NCBI GenBank assembly: GCA_963615165.1
Contig: CAVEGL010000001.1
Location: forward strand, 1-35,249
Direction: 5' to 3'
From: a bacterium
GTDB taxonomy: Bacteria > Patescibacteriota > Saccharimonadia > Saccharimonadales > Saccharimonadaceae
Length of the DNA: 35,249 bases
Positions 698-28,293 of this stretch are shown piece by piece. Below the pieces are notes generated by a model, which was not told where the DNA came from, searched no databases, and saw only the letters and a list, made by a program, of their open reading frames with translations. Within the stretch, counting starts at the first letter, position 1. The number at the start of each line of letters is the position of its first letter. The translations under genes and the position numbers were made by a program.

Positions 698-904
698 CTA
701 CTCATCAAGCTCCTCATACAAACTCCCTACCGGCACTTCCAGCGCATCAGCAATAGCTTTCAGCGTCATCGCATTCGGGATCCTAATCCCCTTTTCAAAC
801 TGCACACAAGCAGCCTGCGTAATTCCCACCTTGGCAGCCACCTCAGCCTGCGTCATGCCCTGCTTTTCACGAACTCTTTTTAAATTTGCCGAAATTGATA
901 ACAT
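698..904 (-). CDS. cro: Cro-like XRE HTH regulator
   Basis: GGAGGTG RBS before ATG 904; LKRVREKQGMTQAEVAAKVGITQAACVQFEKG; divergent from cI. Confidence 0.85.
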   Translation of the reverse strand: MLSISANLKRVREKQGMTQAEVAAKVGITQAACVQFEKGIRIPNAMTLKAIADALEVPVGSLYEELDE

Positions 905-935
905 TTTTTCACCTCCAAAATATTGATCTAAAATA

Positions 936-964
936 TTGACAAATAAATATAACCATGTTAAACT
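936..964 (+). promoter_or_regulatory. sigmaA promoter for the structured RNA
   Basis: TTGACA(936-941)-17 bp-TAAACT(959-964) with extended TG. Confidence 0.8.
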
Positions 965-970
965 TTTATA

Positions 971-1340
971 AAGAGTAGCGATTGAGCGCTCAGTCGCTAC
1001 TCTTACCCTTAATGGGCGGAGAGGAGATGATGCTCTATGAGGCTTTCCTCCAAAGCATATTTTCGCTTTGCCCTCGCACTTTCTGATGATTGCCAATCAG
1101 CCAACCAGAGCTGACGCATTCATCCCCTCTCGCTTGGAGGCGAGTTTTACTCGACAGATCCGCAGCTGCAAATGATGGTGCACCTGTAGGCGATACTACG
1201 AACTTATCGCTTTAGCGCCTACCCACCGGTAGGTGCTTTAATACATCTGCAAGAAAGGAATCTGCGGAGTCCGGCTGACCTTTTCGTAGAAAGCCAGCCG
1301 TTAACTCTTCCACACCTTTTATAGTCAAAGGATGTGGGTC
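971..1340 (+). ncRNA. Putative ~370-nt structured RNA (possibly with a 25-aa sORF at 1037-1114)
   Basis: Starts at the predicted TSS with a 34-bp near-perfect palindrome; many nested helices; no long ORF. Confidence 0.65.
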
Positions 1341-1359
1341 ATTGTTAGAACACAGTTAT

Positions 1360-1388
1360 ATTATAATCTACTTTTAAGTAGAAATCAA
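1360..1388 (-). promoter_or_regulatory. Early lytic promoter (PR-like)
   Basis: Minus strand TTGATT-17-TATAAT; operator palindrome fills the spacer. Confidence 0.8.
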
Positions 1389-1421
1389 TGCTTAATTTTA
1401 ATTTTTCTACTTTTGTGTAGA
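1367..1421. promoter_or_regulatory. Two repressor operators TCTAC-N6-GTAGA
   Basis: TCTACTTTTAAGTAGA (1367-1382) and TCTACTTTTGTGTAGA (1406-1421) between cro and cI. Confidence 0.8.
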
Positions 1422-2174: not shown

Positions 2175-3233
2175 ATGCCCAAAGCAAAAAAACTCCCCAG
2201 CGGAAACTGGCGAGTCCAAGTCTATGCCGGCACCGACAGTACAGGCAAACGTATAAGAAAATCATTCACCGCCCCCACCAAAAAGCAAGCCGAGTACGAT
2301 GCCTCCCTCTGGCAGATCGAGCGCAAAGAAAAAATGTCAGGCAAACTCACCGTAGGACAAGCCCTTAAGCAATATATTGATAGCAAAGACAACATTCTCT
2401 CCCCATCAACCATAGCAGGCTATGAGAAAATCCGCCGCAATCACCTCTTGGAAATTCAACAAATATACATCTCTGACCTAACACACCTGCAAGCCCAAAA
2501 TGCCATAAATGCACTATCCCTAAACCATTCCCCAAAAACCGTCCACAATACCACAGGTTTATTTTATGCCGCCACCAAAAACTATACCACTGCCTTTGCC
2601 AACATCACCGTAAAACAAAAAGAAAAACACGAAATCCAAATCCCGACCGACGATGAAATACACCTGCTCTTAGATAATACTCAAGGCGAAATCAAAACCG
2701 CCATAGCACTTGCAGCCTTAGCAGGTCTCCGCCGCAGTGAAATATTAGCCCTCACCTGGAATAAAATAGATTTTGAGAAACGCCGCATCACCATTAATGC
2801 CGCCTCAATTCGCGGTAAAAATAATATACCGCAAATCAAAGCACCTAAATCTGTTGCAGGTTATAGACAGATACCTATATCAGATCCGCTTTATGAAGTT
2901 TTATCATCTTCCCCTAAAGAAACATCAAAACCTGTCAATCTATACGAATCATCAATCAATCGGCAATTCAATTCTATTTTGCAAAAACTCAATCTGCCTC
3001 ATTACAGATTTCATGACTTGCGCCATTATTACGCCTCCACCTTATTAGCAATAGGCATGCCCGATAAATATGCTATGAAACTTATGGGGCATAATTCTAA
3101 CAATACATTAAAGCAAATTTACCAGCATACCATGGCAGATAAAGAAAAACAATTTGAGCACGATTTGCTGGCGTATCAAAACAGCAAATTGCATTCTAAT
3201 TCGTGTGACATTTCGTGTGAACAAAACATCTAA
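2175..3233 (+). CDS. int: Tyrosine integrase
   Basis: GLRRSE, K(APKS), HDLRH, MGH and catalytic Y; N-terminal arm-binding segment. Confidence 0.96.
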   Translation: MPKAKKLPSGNWRVQVYAGTDSTGKRIRKSFTAPTKKQAEYDASLWQIERKEKMSGKLTVGQALKQYIDSKDNILSPSTIAGYEKIRRNHLLEIQQIYISDLTHLQAQNAINALSLNHSPKTVHNTTGLFYAATKNYTTAFANITVKQKEKHEIQIPTDDEIHLLLDNTQGEIKTAIALAALAGLRRSEILALTWNKIDFEKRRITINAASIRGKNNIPQIKAPKSVAGYRQIPISDPLYEVLSSSPKETSKPVNLYESSINRQFNSILQKLNLPHYRFHDLRHYYASTLLAIGMPDKYAMKLMGHNSNNTLKQIYQHTMADKEKQFEHDLLAYQNSKLHSNSCDISCEQNI

Positions 3234-3298
3234 AACTCTGCATTTTAGTATTAAATTTCGGAAGATAACACCATATTTTAGAATATCACAAGCAAACA

Positions 3299-3338
3299 AA
3301 AAGCCTTGCCTATCGCATTTGCGACAAACAAGGCTTTT
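3299..3338. terminator. Bidirectional terminator after int and the reconstituted tRNA
   Basis: aaaagccttg...caaggctttt inverted repeat. Confidence 0.7.
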
Positions 3339-3347
3339 ATTGTGCTA

Positions 3348-3367
3348 CGGAGAGAGGGGGATTTGAA
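3348..3367 (-). other. attP: attP core = 3' end of a tRNA-Ser
   Basis: Minus strand TTCAAATCCCCCTCTCTCCG is the T-loop, T-stem 3' side and acceptor 3' side of a GGAGAG-type tRNA-Ser; the rest of the tRNA is absent. Confidence 0.85.
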
Positions 3368-3427
3368 TCCCGTTTTTATTGCCTTATTATAGCTTTTTAT
3401 TGTTGTCTATGTGATATTTTGTGTGAA

Positions 3428-3583
3428 CTATTCCGTAAACTTGCGCATCAATATCTCGTGTGCTTCCTTGTACATATCAAATAAACCGTCGGCATACTTC
3501 CGCGCCATATTTCGCTCGCTCTCTGCCTCTGCGCTGTGAGCAATAGCTTTCCACTTCATTGCATCGGCATACAAATCATTCAC
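3428..3583 (-). pseudogene. Probable C-terminal gene remnant or small helical protein
   Basis: Open frame VNDLYADAMKWKAIAH...YKEAHEILMRKFTE*; no good RBS or upstream ATG; GC higher than flanks. Confidence 0.35.
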
Positions 3584-4576: not shown

Positions 4577-7500
4577 CTAAAATCCATACCTTCTCGCCAC
4601 TGAAATATACTGCTCACTCGTCTTCCCGCTGTAGTATTCCTGCCAAATCACCTGCCGTTGCGGATTAGTCAAATCCTTACGGCTCGCCAAATACTGCGCA
4701 ATCGCCCGCTTATTCGCCTCCGTTTTATCGCTCGCTTTCGTATAGCGCTCACTGTTGGCGGATCGCAATTCCGCTATCTTCGCATTACTCTCCGCGTATG
4801 CCGTATAGTCTATCCCATACTTATCGCATTTCTCCTTACGCTTCTTCGCCACATCATAGTTACTGTCGGGAAACGCCTCTTTAATCGCAAAATAATTAGC
4901 CCAGCCCCCTGCATCTTTCAATTTTTCCGTAGTGCTTGCGCCTGCGTCATAGCTTATGTTTCTTCCCTTAAAAAATTCCTTATTCGCCATCTGCGCATTA
5001 TAGGTATAAATCTCTTTCACCGCTTTAGCCTTATCCTCATCGCTCATCGAGCGGTACACATTCGAGCGCATAAGCTCACTTACCGCCTGAAAATTATCCT
5101 GCCCATACTTCGTCTGATACTTCGTATACTCCTTAGCAGTCAAATAATAAGTCTTACTCTTTTTCCCGTCAGCCTTATAGGAAATATACTTACTCCCCAT
5201 CTTCGGCAGCACACCGCTCTCGCCCGAGGCTTCATACAATCTCTTTAATTCCTTATCCGTTGCTGTCTCTTTGTTAGAAGAATACGTCCCCGGCGAAAGC
5301 ATATTAAAGGCCGCCCTGCTGACTATATTATCACCTGCCTGCTTGCGCTCTCTGCCCCAGACGTCCACAGCCGCCTCACTTCTGTAGCTCAATCCCGGCA
5401 CTTTATTCATAAACTGTCGGCCTAAGCTCTCGCCTGTCTTGGTATATTTGCTGTCACTCGGCGCATAGGTAGAGCGCTTCGTCTCGTCAATCGTTCTGGC
5501 AAACTGCCCGGATAATGTCGGCACAAACTGCATCACATAGCTCGTCGCCGCGCTGGTAATCATATTACTGATTGCGCCCTCGTTGCCATAGCTTTCTAAA
5601 GCACTCTGCAAACTATCCATGCAGCTCATCTCCAGCACAGGATCCGTCACCTTGATTAATGCACTGCCGATATCTCTAAGTCCTACATTTTCGCCCTCCT
5701 CGCGGCTTGATATCTCGTCCCTCAAAGCAGCTCCCACAAATAAAGGCATCACCGCAGGCGCCGCCCAGTCTAAAGTATACGTTCCTCCACCGGGCAAGAC
5801 AATGGCATAGTTCTGCCCGCCGATCTGGTTTTCGTAATTCTGCTCGCGCTTGTTACCCTCATCATAGCCTGCCGACAAAAGCCCTGCCTCCGCCAGAAAA
5901 TACCCTAAAGCAACAATTCCCGTACCTGTCAAGCCTTGCGTAATCTCGTTAATCACCTGCGTAGCGGAGACATCGCCTTTTCTCAGCAGCTTTACCATAT
6001 CGCCCAAACCATTCAAAAGCCCCGCAGGCGAATACTCCACCCCTCTTTTTAAGATATTTAAAGGCGTTTTCTTAAACGGCATCAAGGCTTTCACCGCCAG
6101 CTGCCCGCCTTTTTCCAGCTTGCTGTCCGTCTGTTTATTTTCAAAATGATTAAGCGCGCTCGCTAAAGCATTCGCCTCCTGAAACGTCACCTTATACGCC
6201 TCATCAGCCGCATACCGTTTCGCTTCTTCGGCTCTGACACCGCCTCTCTCCATTTCTGCAGGCTTAATATTATTCGCTTTCATATAGTGACTTAAAGCAT
6301 AAATGTACTGTCTCCGCTTAAACCACGTATCCTCAGCGTCCATGGCATTCTCATTCCATTTGCGCGCCGTTTCTACAGGCTGCATGAGCTTAGTGGTAAA
6401 TATCTGACGGTTTCTTTCCGCTTGTCCTCGTTCGCCGTATTTATTGGACAAATCCGTTAAATACTTTCCGTCCGTCTCCCAATTCTTTGCGGCAAACTCT
6501 CTTAATTCCTTACTCACCGTACCAGCCGACTTCGTACGCGTGCCATTCTTGATGGCTGCACTCTCCACCACACCTGCCAGCTGGTCATTAATGCGGCTTA
6601 AACTCAAATTCAAAATATTGCCCACGATATTGCGGATATGTGTCCTGGGATTACCCAGCATCGCCAAGTAGCGCCAAGCATCAAACTTATCTTTCATCCC
6701 CACAGGCAATTGCTTTGCCATATCATCGATAATATAGCTTTGGATCGTCTCCATATTCCCACTGCTGTTGTTTTTATCGAGCATCATCTCCGCATAGCGC
6801 GGATTTAACTCCACTTGGCTTTCGCCTGTCAGTTCATACTTGCTGTTTAATCTGTCACGCAAAAGCACCATCTGGCGCAGTCTGCCCTCAGGCGACATCC
6901 GCTTCATCATGCTCAAAGCCTGCACGCTCTGCCCCATCTCCGTACCAATCATCGAGGCCAGTCCGATCATCTCTGTTACATCACTGGCTTTGCCCTCCGC
7001 CGAGGCTTTCACGATTAATTGCTCCAGTGTCGCTACATCTTCTGCCTTAATGCGCTCGTTCTTTTTATACTTCGCAAAAATCTCCGCCTTAGACTGCTCA
7101 TAGCCCACCTTAGCGATATTCGCATTCGCTTTCTCCTGCAATTTCTGATTGCTGACAGGCTCATAGACAAACTTACCGCTTGCGATATCGCTCGCCAAAC
7201 TATCCGCTATCTTATCCTTAGCCTCGCTTGAGACATTCTCGCTCTCCATCGCCGTGCGGACAAATCGGCGCGTCTTATCCCACTCATTCACCTGCTCAGG
7301 CACCGCCACATCAACCCTCGGCTCCATGCCCTCATCAATCCTGCCGTAACGGTCAATCAGCTCATTATATCTTTCGCCGTTAATACCGCCCTCATAACTT
7401 TCACCGGAAGTGCCACTTCCTTGACTTTCCTCACCCAGCGCATAGCGGATATCTTTCTTACTTGCGTCAAAAGTACCGCGATTACCCGTAGCCGACTTAA

Positions 7501-10500
7501 TCTGCGTAGGCTCCAATGCCACCCACACTGTATGTTTAGTATCCCCCAGCAAATTGCCGCCTGTATCCTTGATACCGTCATAGCCCATATCCAGCATAAT
7601 CTTTCGCGCCTTAGTCGGTACTTGCGTAGCCCAGCCGTCAGCCCCACGCTTAATATCCTCTACCCACTCTCTCAGCGGATAATCCTTTGTCCAATGTGCA
7701 CTATCGGCATCGGCAACCTTTCTTTCCTTACTCGCCTGATACTCCAATTCATTCAGCAAATCCTGCGGAAACGGCTTTGACGTATCAAGGGGATTTTTAA
7801 TATCCAGATACACAGGATATACCCCACCTGCACCTCTTGTATAGCTGTCCCAATCAAGCCCCATATCGTCAAGCAATTTCTCGAAAGTCGACTTTCCTTG
7901 ACTGTTGGTGCTGTAATTCCACCCATTATCCGCATAACCCAAACTTTCCATCAGCTTATACACATTTTGCAGATTATACTTACCGCCATTATAGCGCAAA
8001 CCTCGCAGCATCTTATCATACGGCGCATTTTCTCTCACATAATCCTCGAAATTCACGCCCATATCATCTTCCAGCCACTCATCAAACTTTGCCGCCTGCT
8101 CCTCAGTCAAGCGCACCTTGTCAATAGTATCCTTATACTCGCCTTTGGCATTTTTAAAACGATACTCACTGCCGTTTTCATAAGTCTCCATATTCCCCAG
8201 CTTATCTTTGGCATAGCTTGAAGCAATGTCGGGATTTTCCGTAAAATAAAAACCGCCACTTGTCGCTTTTTTTATATCCCATTGACTGCCGAACAAATTC
8301 GTATTGCCATGACCGCTATATACTACCTTGGGCGTACCGTCCTCATTCTTCACCACACTGTCTTTCATGAAATTCTGCAAATTCTCGTCACTGTTCGCCA
8401 GATACTTGCTGCGCTTCTGATAATCCTTTTCCCCTTTTGTGTCAAGCGCATATCTTTCCTCAAATTTTTTCGGTTTACTATTGACATTTTCAGCGAAATT
8501 GGGTATATTATCAATAGAAGCATGTTGACCCTCGATTGAAGTAGCGGTTTTTCCGTCTACAACGTAGGGTGATGCTTCTATTTTTTTATTTGCGTTTAAT
8601 TGTATACTGTAAACATATTCCCCATCCGTTTTTTTGCGCACATTAGCGACTAAATCATATACTCTGCCGTCAAACTGTACTTGTTTAACGAAATAATCCC
8701 AGCCAATCACATCTTCATGAGCTTTAGCGGTTTTTCCTATATCTTTTTTACTGCCATCATATCTTGCATTTTCAACTAATTCAAAAATGTCTCCGCTTGC
8801 GCCTGCATTAATCTTCGCATTATACCCTTGTTTATCGGATAATTTATCACCGTAAATGTTTTTCTTTAAATCGGCATCTTCAAATCTTGCGTAGTATGCC
8901 TCATTACCAATCATAAATTTAGCTGTTCTGCCCCTGTATTCATTGCGCATCAGATCTAAAAACTTCTCTTTGCGCTCTCTATAGGGCAGTTTTTTTATTT
9001 CATCAGGCGTTTCGTAAACCTCGATACCGTTCTCATTCGTACCTAAAAGCTGATACCTTGCATTTCTCTCCACCCCTGCCGGACTATACTCATCCTTATG
9101 CAGCTTCTCCAAACCATTCTCATACAACCGTCTCGCTTTTAAAAGCGCCGCATACTCTCTCGCTTCCTCGGCTTTCATGCTCTTTTTAGCCTTATAAACG
9201 GCGATGATTTCCTTAATCCGTTCGAGGACCTTAGCCGCCAGTGTACGGTCTTCCAAAAGCACCTGATTAATAGTCGCCTCATCAGTCAGCGCTTTCTCGA
9301 TAAACTCCGCGCCTATTTCCGCACGCGCGCCCTCTTCGTCCAATTCTACCCCGCTTTGGCGATATTTTTCGATCTTCTCGGCGATCATTGCCTCAGCGTC
9401 CTTACCTGCAAACGCCAGCTTCACAATCATATCATGCTCTTTCGTTCCCTCCATAGCATGATACAGCTCATGTGCCACAGTCACTTTCACGCCCTCATCC
9501 ATAGGGCGATTTTTATTGATATAGATAACTCCGTCCTTATAGTACGCTTTCTGCACCAGCGGACGATCTACATATTTCACCTGCATACGCGCCCTGACAG
9601 CCGCATCGCGAATAAACTGCTTAACCTTGCGCTCGTCCTCCGACTCCGTTTTCGGCTTCGTGCTGTCCTCACCTCGGAGCATTTCATCGAGTGCCTGCTC
9701 ATACGGAGTTTCTGCCTCATTCTGCGGCATCTTCCACTTACTCACCTGCTCATCGACCATCTGACGAATTTCTTCCTCGGTAAACGCACTTCTGTCAGCG
9801 TCGATCACCTCTTGCAAAGCCTCCGCTTCCTCCGCCTCGGCTTCTGTCAGCTCATGCCCGCGACGCTGGGCAATAGCATATATAGTCGCTTCAAACGCAT
9901 ACGGATCCTCGTTAAGCGGGTCAAACTCACCGTTCTCATACCGTGCTTGCTCCGCCTTATACCCATAATCCACAGCTCCCGCAATTCCCTCTTTCGTGCG
10001 AATATACTCCGCATTCGGCGGGATACGATAACCGTCACTTTCCGTCCCCATGGACAAATTTTGGTCAAACAATACCTCCAGCTTTTTCGCATTGGCGTTA
10101 TTTTCCCTGCCGCTATCCTCGATAATATCATCTAATGCCTTATCTATCTCTTTATAGCTTAAACCTATCTCATCGCGCGCTGTCACGATATCTTGCGAAG
10201 CAATCCTCCCATGACCGCCGACGAAAGCATCCGTATCTTTCAAACCGCTCTCGCCCTGCCCGAAATAGCGGTTAGGCTTCTGTGCCTCGCTCAGTTCCTG
10301 CCGCATACGCTTAGCCTCCGTCACATAGTACGGACGCACCTCGGGATTATCATAGCTAAACGCATTCATCTTGCGCGAGCCGACAGACTTATAATCTCTC
10401 TTATCGATGTGTTCGCTCTTGACAGACTGCTCACTTTCTGTTACAGTAGGATTAGAAGCAGCGGACACATGGGGCGCCTCGGGCGTATGCAGAGGGACAT

Positions 10501-12211
10501 CTTGCGATGTCATTCGGTACGTGTGGGGCTGCTTTGTTTTATACGCTGTTATGATTTGCAGTGCCTTATAACTATTATCCGGCACAGCTTCCACGACATA
10601 ATAACTGCCATTCACCCTTTTGGTGTACTTCAACACAGGTGCAGGATCATTATTCTTATCCATAAATTCGCTTGAATGTTCATTGCTCACAGCCACATCA
10701 TCATAATTATCCAATACGTATTGAATACGGCTTAAATCATCCAAATTAGACATACTTTTATCAGCCTGTCCGTTTTCACCGTGACGATTTAAAATATGAC
10801 TCACTCGTTCGTCTTTAATCTTATGCGTAAATCCGCTAACATCTATTCCTGTTAATTCTTTTATATCTTCCGCTGCTTCGCTTGTCGGCTTCGACATGGC
10901 AAAGTAGCGTTTTTTATTTACTTTATTTTTCACATCTTTTACAAATTGCAGCAGGCTACCATTTACTGATTTTTCATATTCAGCTTTTATTTGCGGCATA
11001 TCACTTTCTGTCGGAGTACGACGCACAACTACCTTTTGTCCCTCGCTATCAACACCTATTTGCCTTTTTAAGCCCTCGTTTTCTCTCGAGGTATTAATAG
11101 TCACTCTCTCGCCTTGCGCCTCCTGTGCGCCCGTCTGCTCACGCTCAGCCGCCTTTTTCTGCGCCCGATAGCCCAAAGCATTACTGCCGCCGCCTAAAAT
11201 ACCGCCCAACGCCGCCCCGATCGCCGCCTGATACGCCGCCTCGCTAAAAGAAGCATTCTCCGCCGCAGGATTATACGTCGCCCTCTGCAAAAACGGATCC
11301 GCAATCGCGCTCACAGCTTCCTCCGCGCCCTCGCCCGCAGCACCTTTCGCCGTGTTCAAAAGCACATTCTTCACCGAGTCATTCGGTGCCATCTTCATAG
11401 CCTTGTCCAGCACCCCACGGCCATAGAAACGGCTCAAACCGCCCGTCGCCTTTTCGATACCGGCCTCGAGCAATCCCGTACCTACACCGTATCTCGCCGC
11501 CTGTTCATGCGTCGCCCCCTCATCTAACGCCTGCCCATAGCCTTGCGCTGCCGCCTGCGCACCAAACGCCGCCAAACCTGCCACAGGATTCACCACACCT
11601 ACACCCAAAGACGGCAGCATATTGCCAAACGCCCCGCCTAAATTTTGCGCAAACTCGCCCACTTTCCCCAGCTCGTAGCGGTCATCCACCGCCTGCAAAG
11701 CTTTTTTCGACTTTATAGAGCGCACCAAACGCTCCGCATCTATAGCACGCTGTTTTTCCTGCTGCTCCGCCTGCGCCTGTGCCAAGCTTTGCTTATCACC
11801 AAGCCCCAGCTTTTTCTTTTGCAGCACACTCGCATACATATCCCGATCTTCCCAGGACATCTTCATCGGCCAGAAAGTCTGTACCTTACCGTACTTTTGG
11901 CGCATCTGCTCCATAAAACTGTCATAATCGACATTCTCACTCACCGCTTTTTCAGCGGTTTTCAAACCCTGCACCTTGCCAGTGCCTAAATCCGTCTTGA
12001 CAAAAGCTTTTGCGTTAGCAGCTGTGCTTTTCACACCCTCCTTAGCACCCACGCCGATACTCGCTAAAGTACCCTTGACGGCGTTATGACTCTTTTCCTC
12101 GCCCTCCTTGCGCGATGTCCAGCGTACGTCTCTGCTCGCGCGCAGCTTATCCTCGCGTGCCTCGCTCTTAGCCAGTGTCGCCAAAGCAATCTGTCTTTGT
12201 TCCTCAGTCAT
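4577..12211 (-). CDS. Giant polyvalent virion/ejection protein (PBECR-like RNase, zincin-like metallopeptidase, LPD3-like RNase fold, ART-PolyVal, helical C-terminus)
   Basis: HILNRHG...YYVVEAVP...IITAY; HELYH; YFVKQVQFDGRVYDLVANVRK...YVYSIQL; GFYFT...VYPVYLDIKNP...GYDGI...PTQIKSATGNRGTFD; RYLAMLGNPRTHIRN. Confidence 0.85.
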   Translation of the reverse strand: MTEEQRQIALATLAKSEAREDKLRASRDVRWTSRKEGEEKSHNAVKGTLASIGVGAKEGVKSTAANAKAFVKTDLGTGKVQGLKTAEKAVSENVDYDSFMEQMRQKYGKVQTFWPMKMSWEDRDMYASVLQKKKLGLGDKQSLAQAQAEQQEKQRAIDAERLVRSIKSKKALQAVDDRYELGKVGEFAQNLGGAFGNMLPSLGVGVVNPVAGLAAFGAQAAAQGYGQALDEGATHEQAARYGVGTGLLEAGIEKATGGLSRFYGRGVLDKAMKMAPNDSVKNVLLNTAKGAAGEGAEEAVSAIADPFLQRATYNPAAENASFSEAAYQAAIGAALGGILGGGSNALGYRAQKKAAEREQTGAQEAQGERVTINTSRENEGLKRQIGVDSEGQKVVVRRTPTESDMPQIKAEYEKSVNGSLLQFVKDVKNKVNKKRYFAMSKPTSEAAEDIKELTGIDVSGFTHKIKDERVSHILNRHGENGQADKSMSNLDDLSRIQYVLDNYDDVAVSNEHSSEFMDKNNDPAPVLKYTKRVNGSYYVVEAVPDNSYKALQIITAYKTKQPHTYRMTSQDVPLHTPEAPHVSAASNPTVTESEQSVKSEHIDKRDYKSVGSRKMNAFSYDNPEVRPYYVTEAKRMRQELSEAQKPNRYFGQGESGLKDTDAFVGGHGRIASQDIVTARDEIGLSYKEIDKALDDIIEDSGRENNANAKKLEVLFDQNLSMGTESDGYRIPPNAEYIRTKEGIAGAVDYGYKAEQARYENGEFDPLNEDPYAFEATIYAIAQRRGHELTEAEAEEAEALQEVIDADRSAFTEEEIRQMVDEQVSKWKMPQNEAETPYEQALDEMLRGEDSTKPKTESEDERKVKQFIRDAAVRARMQVKYVDRPLVQKAYYKDGVIYINKNRPMDEGVKVTVAHELYHAMEGTKEHDMIVKLAFAGKDAEAMIAEKIEKYRQSGVELDEEGARAEIGAEFIEKALTDEATINQVLLEDRTLAAKVLERIKEIIAVYKAKKSMKAEEAREYAALLKARRLYENGLEKLHKDEYSPAGVERNARYQLLGTNENGIEVYETPDEIKKLPYRERKEKFLDLMRNEYRGRTAKFMIGNEAYYARFEDADLKKNIYGDKLSDKQGYNAKINAGASGDIFELVENARYDGSKKDIGKTAKAHEDVIGWDYFVKQVQFDGRVYDLVANVRKKTDGEYVYSIQLNANKKIEASPYVVDGKTATSIEGQHASIDNIPNFAENVNSKPKKFEERYALDTKGEKDYQKRSKYLANSDENLQNFMKDSVVKNEDGTPKVVYSGHGNTNLFGSQWDIKKATSGGFYFTENPDIASSYAKDKLGNMETYENGSEYRFKNAKGEYKDTIDKVRLTEEQAAKFDEWLEDDMGVNFEDYVRENAPYDKMLRGLRYNGGKYNLQNVYKLMESLGYADNGWNYSTNSQGKSTFEKLLDDMGLDWDSYTRGAGGVYPVYLDIKNPLDTSKPFPQDLLNELEYQASKERKVADADSAHWTKDYPLREWVEDIKRGADGWATQVPTKARKIMLDMGYDGIKDTGGNLLGDTKHTVWVALEPTQIKSATGNRGTFDASKKDIRYALGEESQGSGTSGESYEGGINGERYNELIDRYGRIDEGMEPRVDVAVPEQVNEWDKTRRFVRTAMESENVSSEAKDKIADSLASDIASGKFVYEPVSNQKLQEKANANIAKVGYEQSKAEIFAKYKKNERIKAEDVATLEQLIVKASAEGKASDVTEMIGLASMIGTEMGQSVQALSMMKRMSPEGRLRQMVLLRDRLNSKYELTGESQVELNPRYAEMMLDKNNSSGNMETIQSYIIDDMAKQLPVGMKDKFDAWRYLAMLGNPRTHIRNIVGNILNLSLSRINDQLAGVVESAAIKNGTRTKSAGTVSKELREFAAKNWETDGKYLTDLSNKYGERGQAERNRQIFTTKLMQPVETARKWNENAMDAEDTWFKRRQYIYALSHYMKANNIKPAEMERGGVRAEEAKRYAADEAYKVTFQEANALASALNHFENKQTDSKLEKGGQLAVKALMPFKKTPLNILKRGVEYSPAGLLNGLGDMVKLLRKGDVSATQVINEITQGLTGTGIVALGYFLAEAGLLSAGYDEGNKREQNYENQIGGQNYAIVLPGGGTYTLDWAAPAVMPLFVGAALRDEISSREEGENVGLRDIGSALIKVTDPVLEMSCMDSLQSALESYGNEGAISNMITSAATSYVMQFVPTLSGQFARTIDETKRSTYAPSDSKYTKTGESLGRQFMNKVPGLSYRSEAAVDVWGRERKQAGDNIVSRAAFNMLSPGTYSSNKETATDKELKRLYEASGESGVLPKMGSKYISYKADGKKSKTYYLTAKEYTKYQTKYGQDNFQAVSELMRSNVYRSMSDEDKAKAVKEIYTYNAQMANKEFFKGRNISYDAGASTTEKLKDAGGWANYFAIKEAFPDSNYDVAKKRKEKCDKYGIDYTAYAESNAKIAELRSANSERYTKASDKTEANKRAIAQYLASRKDLTNPQRQVIWQEYYSGKTSEQYISVARRYGF
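8481..8509 (+). promoter_or_regulatory. Antisense sigmaA promoter inside the giant CDS (1)
   Basis: TTGACA(8481-8486)-17-TATATT(8504-8509). Confidence 0.75.
8513..8587 (+). ncRNA. Embedded antisense structured RNA 1
   Basis: 11-bp closing stem aatagaagcat/atgcttctatt, inner accct/agggt, gtag/ctac, cgg/ccg, then a T7 run. Confidence 0.7.
10419..10447 (+). promoter_or_regulatory. Antisense sigmaA promoter inside the giant CDS (2)
   Basis: TTGACA(10419-10424)-17-TACAGT(10442-10447) with extended TG. Confidence 0.7.
10454..10540 (+). ncRNA. Embedded antisense structured RNA 2
   Basis: aagcagc/gctgctt closing stem, cacatg/cgtgtg, hairpins gcgcc/ggcgt and gacatc-ttgc-gatgtc, U-rich tail. Confidence 0.7.
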
Positions 12212-13727: not shown

Positions 13728-13753
13728 AAAAAAGAGACGCTCTCACGTCTCTC
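13728..13753 (-). terminator. Terminator of the TA operon
   Basis: gagacg-tgagag-cgtctc followed by T6 on minus strand. Confidence 0.75.
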
Positions 13754-13850
13754 ATTTATCACGATAATGTGACCCGCACTGCACTATTTTAATAACATCA
13801 CCGTCAATCCTATATACTATCCTATTGCAGTCGTCAATCCTCCTGCTCCA
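13752..13850 (-). pseudogene. yoeB: C-terminal remnant of a Txe/YoeB toxin
   Basis: WSRRIDDCNRIVYRIDGDVIKIVQCGSHYRDK*; no start codon or N-terminus. Confidence 0.85.
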
Positions 13851-14034
13851 TATTCGCCTCCGAATAAAACGGATCCGCCGATACTTCAAAAGGTATTCTT
13901 TTCTCCCTGCACACCTTCGTCGCAAAAATCGTAAACGCCGTCGTCATCGACATCCCCATTTCCCTGCAGGTCTTCTCCATATTCTTTTTCAATTCTTCAT
14001 CCATCCGAAAATTAACCATAGCCTGAGCCATCAT
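13834..14034 (-). CDS. relB: RelB/DinJ antitoxin, C-terminally truncated
   Basis: VNFRMDEELKK...GMSMTTAFTIF...RIPFEVSADPFYSEANM; promoter TTGACA(14083-14078)-17-TATACT(14060-14055). Confidence 0.88.
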   Translation of the reverse strand: MMAQAMVNFRMDEELKKNMEKTCREMGMSMTTAFTIFATKVCREKRIPFEVSADPFYSEANMEQED

Positions 14035-27177: not shown

Positions 27178-27565
27178 AGCGACTCACATCCTCAGGCAGT
27201 ACAATTTCAATCTTCGTATCCTGCGCCACCTCCGCCTTATCCGTCCACCTACACCAATTCTTCAAAGCAAAAATGCACATCGTCGCATTATACCTCCCCA
27301 AAGCCGCCCCCTCCGCCAGCACATCACTCTGCACCTGCTCAAAAGCACTTTTTATACTGGGGAAATATTTATTCAGCGCATTATAAATCGTCTTCCGATC
27401 CGCCTTTTCATAATTATCCTCCAGCCACCGACAAAACCCCGTCTGCGTCGGCAACCGTTTAAAACCATCATCCACCACCCAATCACAATACTCACGCCAC
27501 AAATCTAAAAGCCCATCGCCATTCTTCCACTTCCGCGGCTTCCCCCGCGACCTCTTCTCACTCAT
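27167..27565 (-). CDS. terS: Terminase small subunit
   Basis: Upstream of terL; RGKPRKW...IFALKNWCRWTDK. Confidence 0.85.
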   Translation of the reverse strand: MSEKRSRGKPRKWKNGDGLLDLWREYCDWVVDDGFKRLPTQTGFCRWLEDNYEKADRKTIYNALNKYFPSIKSAFEQVQSDVLAEGAALGRYNATMCIFALKNWCRWTDKAEVAQDTKIEIVLPEDVSRYAD

Positions 27566-27600
27566 CTTCATCACCTCCGCCAAAAAACCTCCCGCAAAGC

Positions 27601-27685
27601 AAAAGAGCACAAGCTCATCGCTTGTGCCCTCTCACCGAAAGGAGGTGTCTATATGAAAAGAAAACTCCGATATGTTTTAATCCAT
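27601..27685 (-). ncRNA. Short late-promoter transcript carrying an anti-Shine-Dalgarno sequence
   Basis: Between the late promoter and terminator gggcacaagc/gcttgtgctc + T4; contains CACCUCCUUU. Confidence 0.55.
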
Positions 27686-27691
27686 GCTAAC

Positions 27692-27727
27692 ATAATACCA
27701 CATAATCCACTCTCATACACTCTCATA
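27692..27727 (-). promoter_or_regulatory. Activator-dependent late promoter
   Basis: Extended -10 TGgTATTAT; tandem 10-bp repeat cactctcata (27708-27717, 27718-27727) in place of the -35. Confidence 0.7.
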
Positions 27728-27757
27728 ATCTTTTCAAAAATACTTTTATGTTCTCTC

Positions 27758-27786
27758 TTGACAATCGGTTAAACCCATACTATAAT
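27758..27786 (+). promoter_or_regulatory. Consensus sigmaA promoter of the moron cassette
   Basis: TTGACA-17-TATAAT; GGTTaAACC palindrome in the spacer. Confidence 0.9.
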
Positions 27787-27843
27787 ATACTTGTGGTTGA
27801 GAGAGATCACAAATAACGGGGCAAGACGAGAAAGGAGAACACA

Positions 27844-27978
27844 ATGGAAGAAATGGGAATGACCGACTTACAGTTCAAATCTTTTCTTAAACTTTTAATC
27901 AAACAACTCGAGGACGCTAAAACCGAAGAGCAAAAACAAGAAATCGTCCAGCAGTTAAAAGAAATGCTGCAAGGATAA
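27844..27978 (+). CDS. 44-aa soluble helical peptide (not in ORF track)
   Basis: AAAGGAG RBS; MEEMGMTDLQFKSFLKLLIKQLEDAKTEEQKQEIVQQLKEMLQG. Confidence 0.85.
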   Translation: MEEMGMTDLQFKSFLKLLIKQLEDAKTEEQKQEIVQQLKEMLQG

Positions 27979-28045
27979 AAAAATAGGTCCCGAATGGGAC
28001 CTACAACCGATAAGAGAAAGGCGGGCTTGCCACCGCCTCTTCTTC
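27977..28045 (-). ncRNA. Convergent ~70-nt antisense RNA
   Basis: TTGACA(28079-28074)-17-TGnTAAGGT(28056-28051); hairpin aggcgg/ccgcct; terminator taggtccc/gggaccta + T7. Confidence 0.7.
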
Positions 28046-28092
28046 TCTCAACCTTACCACATTCTTTACCCTTTGTCAAGCGAGGTGATATT

Positions 28093-28266
28093 ATGAGCAA
28101 AGATAATCCCACCGCCAAAGAAAAATACGATACTGCCAACACCCAGTTTATCGGCTTAAAATTAAATAAAAAAACCGACAGCGATATTTTAGCCGCCCTG
28201 GATAACAAATCCAAACAAACCGAAATCAAGCGCTTGCTGCGTATCGGTATCGCCGCCGATGTCTAA
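28093..28266 (+). CDS. 57-aa ribbon-helix-helix-like protein
   Basis: GAGGTG RBS; KYD..NT.FIGLKLNKKTDSDILAALD...KQTEIKRLLR. Confidence 0.8.
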   Translation: MSKDNPTAKEKYDTANTQFIGLKLNKKTDSDILAALDNKSKQTEIKRLLRIGIAADV

Positions 28267-28293
28267 AGCCTGCCCCATAAGCAGGCTTTTTTT
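28265..28293. terminator. Bidirectional terminator
   Basis: aaagcctgc-cccataa-gcaggctttttt. Confidence 0.85.

Follow-up and report, generated by a model that had tools for sequence, protein, structure and literature searches.

A previously uncatalogued structured RNA is predicted to head the lytic transcript of a temperate phage, the entire circular contig of which (35,249 nt, with a 55-nt terminal repeat) constitutes the window analysed here. It sits between a cro-like and a cI-like gene (Table 1), and sequence and fold modelling suggest that it is most likely read from the CI-repressed lytic promoter PR (1388/1365) to end at the 971-1004 hairpin before cro. As the best explanation, held tentatively and at somewhat less than an even chance, it would be an immediate-early RNA that acts on its own, is ended by a leaky terminator, and is silenced in the lysogen by both CI and antisense transcription. 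Large phage RNAs of obscure function are an open problem, and most of them lack a regulatory context; the window RNA offers an on-switch in the CI-repressed PR, an antisense control, one- and two-unit forms, and paralogues marking the minimal fold, which render its role testable.

Phage genes on the window, which are of Firmicutes type, encode an integrase, a terminase, a portal protein, a capsid protein and a phi LC3-type holin. Since the contig is a tetranucleotide outlier (r 0.76) among the 18 long contigs of its 794-kb bin, and the nearest relatives of the phage SSB are Bacillota proteins, the phage probably infects some Firmicute and not the organism of this small-genome bin, in which the contig is probably mis-binned. 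The structured RNA was found in none of 100 relatives of the host bin, 2 of 200 genomes of the family gave distant capsid matches only, and ARAGORN detected neither tRNA nor tmRNA on the 35-kb contig.

Table 1. Features of the cI-cro region of the window.
Feature	Positions	Strand	Remarks
cro-like HTH gene	698-907	-	first gene after the RNA
Convergent promoter, TTGACA-17-TG-TAAACT	936-964	+	start ~971; predicted antisense RNA, aimed at cI
Terminal hairpin	964-1004	-	self-complementary loop, weak U run; also 5' hairpin of the antisense RNA
Structured RNA, short form	971-1353	-	~385 nt; start placed ~7 nt past the -10 box
36-codon ORF inside domain B	1009-1119	-	judged probably non-coding
Domain B	1014-1133	-	multi-branch junction, 18-nt closing helix
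Terminator-like hairpin	1129-1148	+	could end a ~180-nt antisense RNA; competes with a domain B helix
Domain A	1159-1268	-	two outer helices around a nested rod or two local hairpins
Hairpin H1	1272-1300	-	present in each paralogous unit; X3 carries a compensatory change at 1272/1300
5' part of short form	1310-1357	-	unit 1 remnant and hairpin 1310-1337
PR, lytic promoter, TTGATT-17-TATAAT	1360-1388	-	operator palindrome as spacer; from promoter scan
Two operator palindromes	1367-1382, 1406-1421		presumed CI sites; CI binding presumed
cI-like HTH repressor gene	1456-1806	+

A first-pass annotation, made from the letters of the sequence, had described a highly structured RNA of ~370 nt with a list of helices, all of which were located where it had placed them (tccgcag 1159/ctgcgga 1262, cctacc 1218/ggtagg 1228, and the final hairpin 1310-1337, among others), with a z-score of about -7 for the whole. 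Region 965-1345 folds at -147.3 kcal/mol on the plus strand (z -7.1) and at -152.1 on the minus strand (z -6.6), and none of 100 shuffles was as stable. With a cruder shuffle applied to both, the element reached -8.5, against z-scores from +0.5 to -4.8 for 22 control 380-nt windows of the contig. In the palindrome at 971-1004, 16 of the 17 pairs are Watson-Crick, the remaining one is T.G, and the loop is self-complementary. Taken from prediction, these values indicate that the structure of the element is real. Mutually exclusive pairs, previously read as those of a switch, do exist; all of them belong to a single domain that is 200 nt away from the terminal hairpin, which leaves a switch unsupported. 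The 450 nt said to lack a long ORF need some qualification, as the cro frame is open upstream to TTG 1096 in the window only (it is stopped in L145, the related phage introduced below) and ORFs of 25-41 codons occur on both strands. Judged by the substitution pattern and the protein search, the region is not a decayed gene.

The comparison with Rfam by Infernal, which had been proposed as a check on novelty, matched no family, so that the novelty stands: a search of the window against Rfam 15, including GOLLD and ROOL, gave 0 hits, the region by itself reached an E of 0.56 at best, and the best E for the longer form of the RNA in L145 was 1.1. Neither form had a blastn match beyond chance in INPHARED and PLSDB. 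In IMG/VR, the palindrome pattern retrieved 120 unrelated hairpins, none with blastn similarity, two exact motifs had 0 hits, two structural patterns had 4 and 2 hits, all of them chance, and the second HTH gene as query recovered no viral locus. Relatives of cI and of the integrase in the same database (17 and 80 loci) were without the RNA by blastn, nhmmer and, over 96 sources, a covariance model of 155 positions rather than of full length. The single match in GTDB was a chance one within a coding gene. Resemblances to RNase P, the tmRNA tag, group I/II introns, the T-box and attC were weighed by eye and dropped. No description of the RNA was found in the literature searched, and of the supplements of PMC10690425, which may hold a candidate motif, the 6 files covered contained none of 6 motifs. 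The best complementarity of the RNA to the rest of the phage is 13 nt long (E 0.17), not above chance.

Homologues are few and all of them close. Four sequencing runs (feces, two of wastewater, and a gut RNA library; X1, X3 and X4 are among them) each yielded one contig that aligns within 1002-1362 over part of its length and differs from the window at 7 to 15 positions; the contig of the gut RNA run (X4) is 199 nt long, covers 980-1178, and shows neither strand, ends nor level. Among 32 motif matches in JGI metagenomes, one was a homologue, in the related phage L145. Its element is 92.7% identical to that of the window over 934-1302, the best long match of both phages in the 8 kb compared, while long coding blocks are 71-83% identical. 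In the core (1010-1289), 271 of 280 positions agree (97%), against 18 of 65 residues (28%) in Cro, and at four-fold sites of two neighbouring genes 44 of 88 and 20 of 27 are identical; the high identity of the core could partly come from recent exchange. The arms of the terminal hairpin differ yet still pair in L145, X1 and X4, and the palindromic core is kept. The short ORF inside the element, in the form found in L145, is identical to the database entry DAU72921.1, so a deposited phage genome also carries the element. Protein clusters indicate that contigs of related phages number in the dozens. With the IMG/VR and GTDB searches giving no further copy, the family appears, from the sequences at hand, to be confined to one close phage group.

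The strand on which the RNA functions was addressed with 24 distinct substitutions, pooled from L145 and the four run contigs and mapped onto the predicted pairs of the window. On the minus fold, 12 were unpaired, 8 pair-keeping, 2 compensatory and 2 pair-breaking, against 8.0 breaks expected under random placement with the same spectrum (P=0.0008, an indicative value, for the events come from related, non-independent sequences and the tested structure is itself a prediction from the window). On the plus fold, 9 of the 24 break a pair against 10.6 expected (P=0.29). These counts point to the minus strand as that of the RNA, and selection would seem to act on the minus-strand fold. In the long form of L145, helices of at least 12 bp hold 14 G.U against 1 A.C in the minus sense, and the ratio over all helices is 51 to 29 (34 to 25 in shuffles); the long helices of the window alone are equivocal (3 to 2), and the sole mismatch of the terminal hairpin 971-1004 favours the plus strand.

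The opposite possibility, namely that the functional RNA is a plus transcript made in the lysogen from 936-964, or that this promoter is a PRE-like one for the establishment of cI with an incidental fold, draws on a near-consensus, conserved promoter whose start coincides with the base of the stable 971-1004 hairpin, on the terminator-like site downstream, and on the z-score of the plus fold. Excerpts of PMC5001618 describe lambda PR and PRE as convergent and 320 bp apart. As the plus fold is broken at the rate of chance and the long helices of L145 carry their G.U pairs in the minus sense, it is the least probable of the explanations weighed here, and a very improbable one. The proposal of the first-pass annotation that the RNA has its own promoter and is expressed in the lysogen is not supported, the favoured minus fold being one that starts at PR and the plus promoter being predicted to make the antisense; an antisense brake on the lytic leader, which it had also suggested, is a role that this promoter would fit.

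Both promoters that had been noted as firing head-on were recovered, the plus one at 936-964 and the minus one at 1388-1360. Because a promoter scan gave 8 hits, near the shuffled mean of 6.6, the case for them rests on conservation. Both boxes of the plus promoter are retained in L145, with an altered spacer. Consensus equivalents of PR with other operators stand in the same place, two in L145 and one in X3 (at a loose contig end), and hence the RNA appears, by sequence comparison, to go together with PR in no fewer than three immunity types. In L145, positions 2615-3463 contain a pair of cI-like genes, both equipped with a PR and an operator. Downstream of the distal PR, the initial ~130 nt of unit 1 are joined to the end of a short cI of 75 residues, an arrangement reminiscent of a half-completed exchange of immunity cassettes.

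The long form in L145 measures about 790 nt and comprises two homologous but diverged units in tandem (local score 107.5, attained by 0 of 300 shuffles, whose maximum was 103), and the window aligns with unit 1 at a score of 114 against 92 for shuffles. Each unit begins with H1, continues with domains A and B, and closes with a terminal hairpin whose palindromic core is shared by the two. Across H1 and domain A, 12 of 41 pairs are changed on both sides and still paired, and 92.7% of cells pair against 31-55% in slid controls, figures inflated by the derivation of the structure from the same three sequences. Domain B resembles its counterpart in unit 1 in sequence only, the pairing differing from one unit to the other. 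Unit 1 has a closing helix of 27 bp (5 G.U, no A.C), followed by a hairpin and a U run, and folds at -170.5 on the minus strand against -130.4 on the other; this predicted layout would be that of a free-standing RNA gene, and the long closing helix is absent from unit 2 and from the window form. The terminal hairpin of the window, at -18.8 kcal/mol with a weak U run, is a probable leaky terminator as modelled, and that of unit 1 reaches only -7.4.

As the window retains unit 2 plus 33 nt of unit 1 (1327-1357, 88% to L145 3753-3784), its short form is the product of a deletion, and it is a natural variant, since X3 shows the same form with a compensatory change. Hairpin 1310-1337 is absent from L145, and 1310-1357 is unchanged in X3. 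Copy number varies from one unit to two, with a partial third in L145, and a single unit appears to suffice. Variable copy number, a narrow distribution and a conserved stretch flanking a swapped cI/operator cassette would also suit a selfish or neutral folded insert, spread by recombination beside the immunity cassette and without a role for the phage. We regard such an insert as improbable: nothing nearby matches a transposase, a reverse transcriptase or a ribozyme, the element always starts at PR, and its structure is maintained across diverged units.

A weightier alternative, close behind the preferred reading though less likely than not, is a cis-acting leader that sets how much transcription from PR reaches cro; it would be an attenuator responding to a signal or an RNA-polymerase-modifying antiterminator of the put or conAn2 kind. 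Lying directly after PR, the RNA has the place and the strand expected of a 5' leader, hairpin 971-1004 is the first terminator-like site of the PR transcript, every unit ends in a hairpin and a U run, and the tandem units of L145 resemble tandem riboswitches; the indifference of the RNA to the type of CI and Cro would suit host RNA polymerase as its partner. According to excerpts of PMC8191782, conAn2 regions, which act as RNA antiterminators in mobile elements of Gram-positive bacteria, measure about 260-600 bp and lie near the start of the controlled operon, and the window RNA, like conAn2, EAR and HK022 put, comes early in a controlled transcript. Against this, upstream pairing of the 5' arm of the terminal hairpin gains ~5 kcal/mol, versus -17 to -19 for the hairpin, and the pairing partners differ between the window and L145, so that the conserved competing antiterminator of a riboswitch or attenuator is lacking. 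A strict scan of the minus strand from cro to 28197 found no terminator; a relaxed scan from cro to 29711 found 8 weak hairpins in coding DNA, and a strong terminator at 28004-27983 closes the early region. Unlike conAn systems, the phage has no ConAn1-type partner among 27 proteins scanned with Pfam (mostly of the early region, many of them without a family), no plasmid match, and no run of terminators in the early operon, and its fold is far stabler than the conAn2 stems (-10 and -6 kcal/mol in the same excerpts). An antitermination element on the minus strand, as once proposed, has the strand right, but neither a convincing antiterminator helix nor, for ~8 kb, a clear early-operon terminator was found. 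Were the RNA cis-acting, a temperate phage of Firmicutes type would possess a large RNA antiterminator or attenuator, of which no case was found in the literature searched.

Most related switches have short leaders, which also speaks against a cis-acting one. HTH pairs could be placed in 34 distinct cI-cro gaps (99 loci), and 24 of the 32 others span just 141-223 nt, so this type of switch needs no long cis element; three of the longer gaps, when examined, contained missed genes. Of the 24 related switch regions compared, 15 seem to have their promoters back-to-back and 3, including L193, face-to-face, and 6 are unclear. Between PR and cro, L193 (867-1240) has two short ORFs for hydrophobic peptides of 38 and 36 residues, together with a hairpin and the same convergent promoter; the ORFs have no PHROGs family at E<0.04, and the content looks type I toxin-antitoxin-like, which suggests that the slot is a position for cargo. 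L219 (4190-4310) and L229 (4114-4250) share a different conserved leader of ~120 nt after PR, unrelated to the window RNA.

Convergent antisense promoters belong to the geometry of clostridial type I toxin-antitoxin modules. In the window, too, such a promoter runs over a short ORF, and the minus transcript might be the mRNA for a 36-residue peptide, the domain B helix sequestering the ribosome-binding site and the plus RNA serving as antitoxin. The Shine-Dalgarno-like run, the ORF stop 4 nt before the hairpin and the convergent promoter reproduce the layout seen around the small hydrophobic ORF of L193, L145 has kept the frame open (annotated as DAU72921.1), and excerpts of PMC6563280 give a short ORF and a 3' hairpin for the clostridial modules. 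Unlike those of such modules, the peptide is charged and not hydrophobic, and a search of 1.84 billion representatives returned nothing beyond its own 92% relative, with no PHROG matched either; the paralogous unit 1 has no corresponding ORF, and 3 of the 5 changes within the ORF alter an amino acid. This origin is accordingly assigned a low probability.

Among known systems, GOLLD and ROOL are large multi-junction RNAs of phages and prophages, GOLLD rising during lysis and palindromic loops mediating self-association (excerpts of PMC12286853 and PMC12990946). The long form of L145, with each unit ending in a self-complementary loop, is like them in size; unlike them, the window RNA has no Rfam match, occurs in a phage without tRNA (GOLLD and ROOL are often beside tRNA arrays), has a unit of 350-420 nt, and is embedded in the cI-cro switch, where CI controls it and an antisense promoter opposes it. 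Promoters head-on to the lytic promoter and pointing toward cI are found in lambda (PR/PRE) and in the noncontiguous operons of S. aureus (excerpts of PMC5001618 and PMC11087260), as in the window, where, unlike in both, the convergent promoter is upstream of cro, looks activator-independent, and has a structured RNA filling the gap. The window RNA thus fails membership in each of the families tested.

With no terminator to pass between cro and 28197 by the strict scan, a weak competing helix, and a 36-codon ORF that has neither a distant relative nor a counterpart in unit 1, a free RNA is preferred by a modest margin over the cis-acting leader. The mechanism starts from the observed fold, conservation, substitution strand bias, promoter and operator geometry and tandem paralogues, from which we infer start sites, termination, timing and action in trans. 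A non-coding RNA gene would occupy the first position of the lytic transcript, and once CI leaves PR, upon induction or infection, RNA polymerase would make an RNA of ~385 nt (about 790 nt in L145). Most or many transcripts would stop or be trimmed at the 971-1004 hairpin, releasing a compact folded RNA that acts alone, and read-through would supply cro and the early genes. In the lysogen, CI would repress PR as a first lock, and as a second the promoter at 936-964 would make a complementary RNA and oppose PR by interference. Because the RNA is nearly constant while CI, operators and Cro are swapped, its partner is most likely a conserved host factor or defence protein. A more specific proposal, a new class of trans-acting immediate-early phage RNAs that would counter a host factor or a defence system by acting as decoys or by assembling into particles, and be carried as interchangeable, tandem-duplicated, antisense-silenced cargo between PR and cro, is considerably less probable.

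Several other loci of the window deserve mention. Inside the lytic operon and on the plus strand, 482-694 is a membrane-like ORF of 70 residues, absent from L145 and without a PHROG or Pfam family, which is a candidate accessory gene expressed in the lysogen. A large polyvalent protein of 2544 residues with PBECR3, ART-PolyVal and weak LPD3 domains is encoded at 4577-12211, and at 13752-14034 a type II pair is broken, its RelB-type antitoxin being followed by no more than the C-terminal part of a YoeB-like gene. The early/late boundary at 27500-28290, which includes the strong terminator mentioned above, has a locally stable fold (z -4.8) and a plus-strand promoter at 27758 with 12 of 12 consensus positions.
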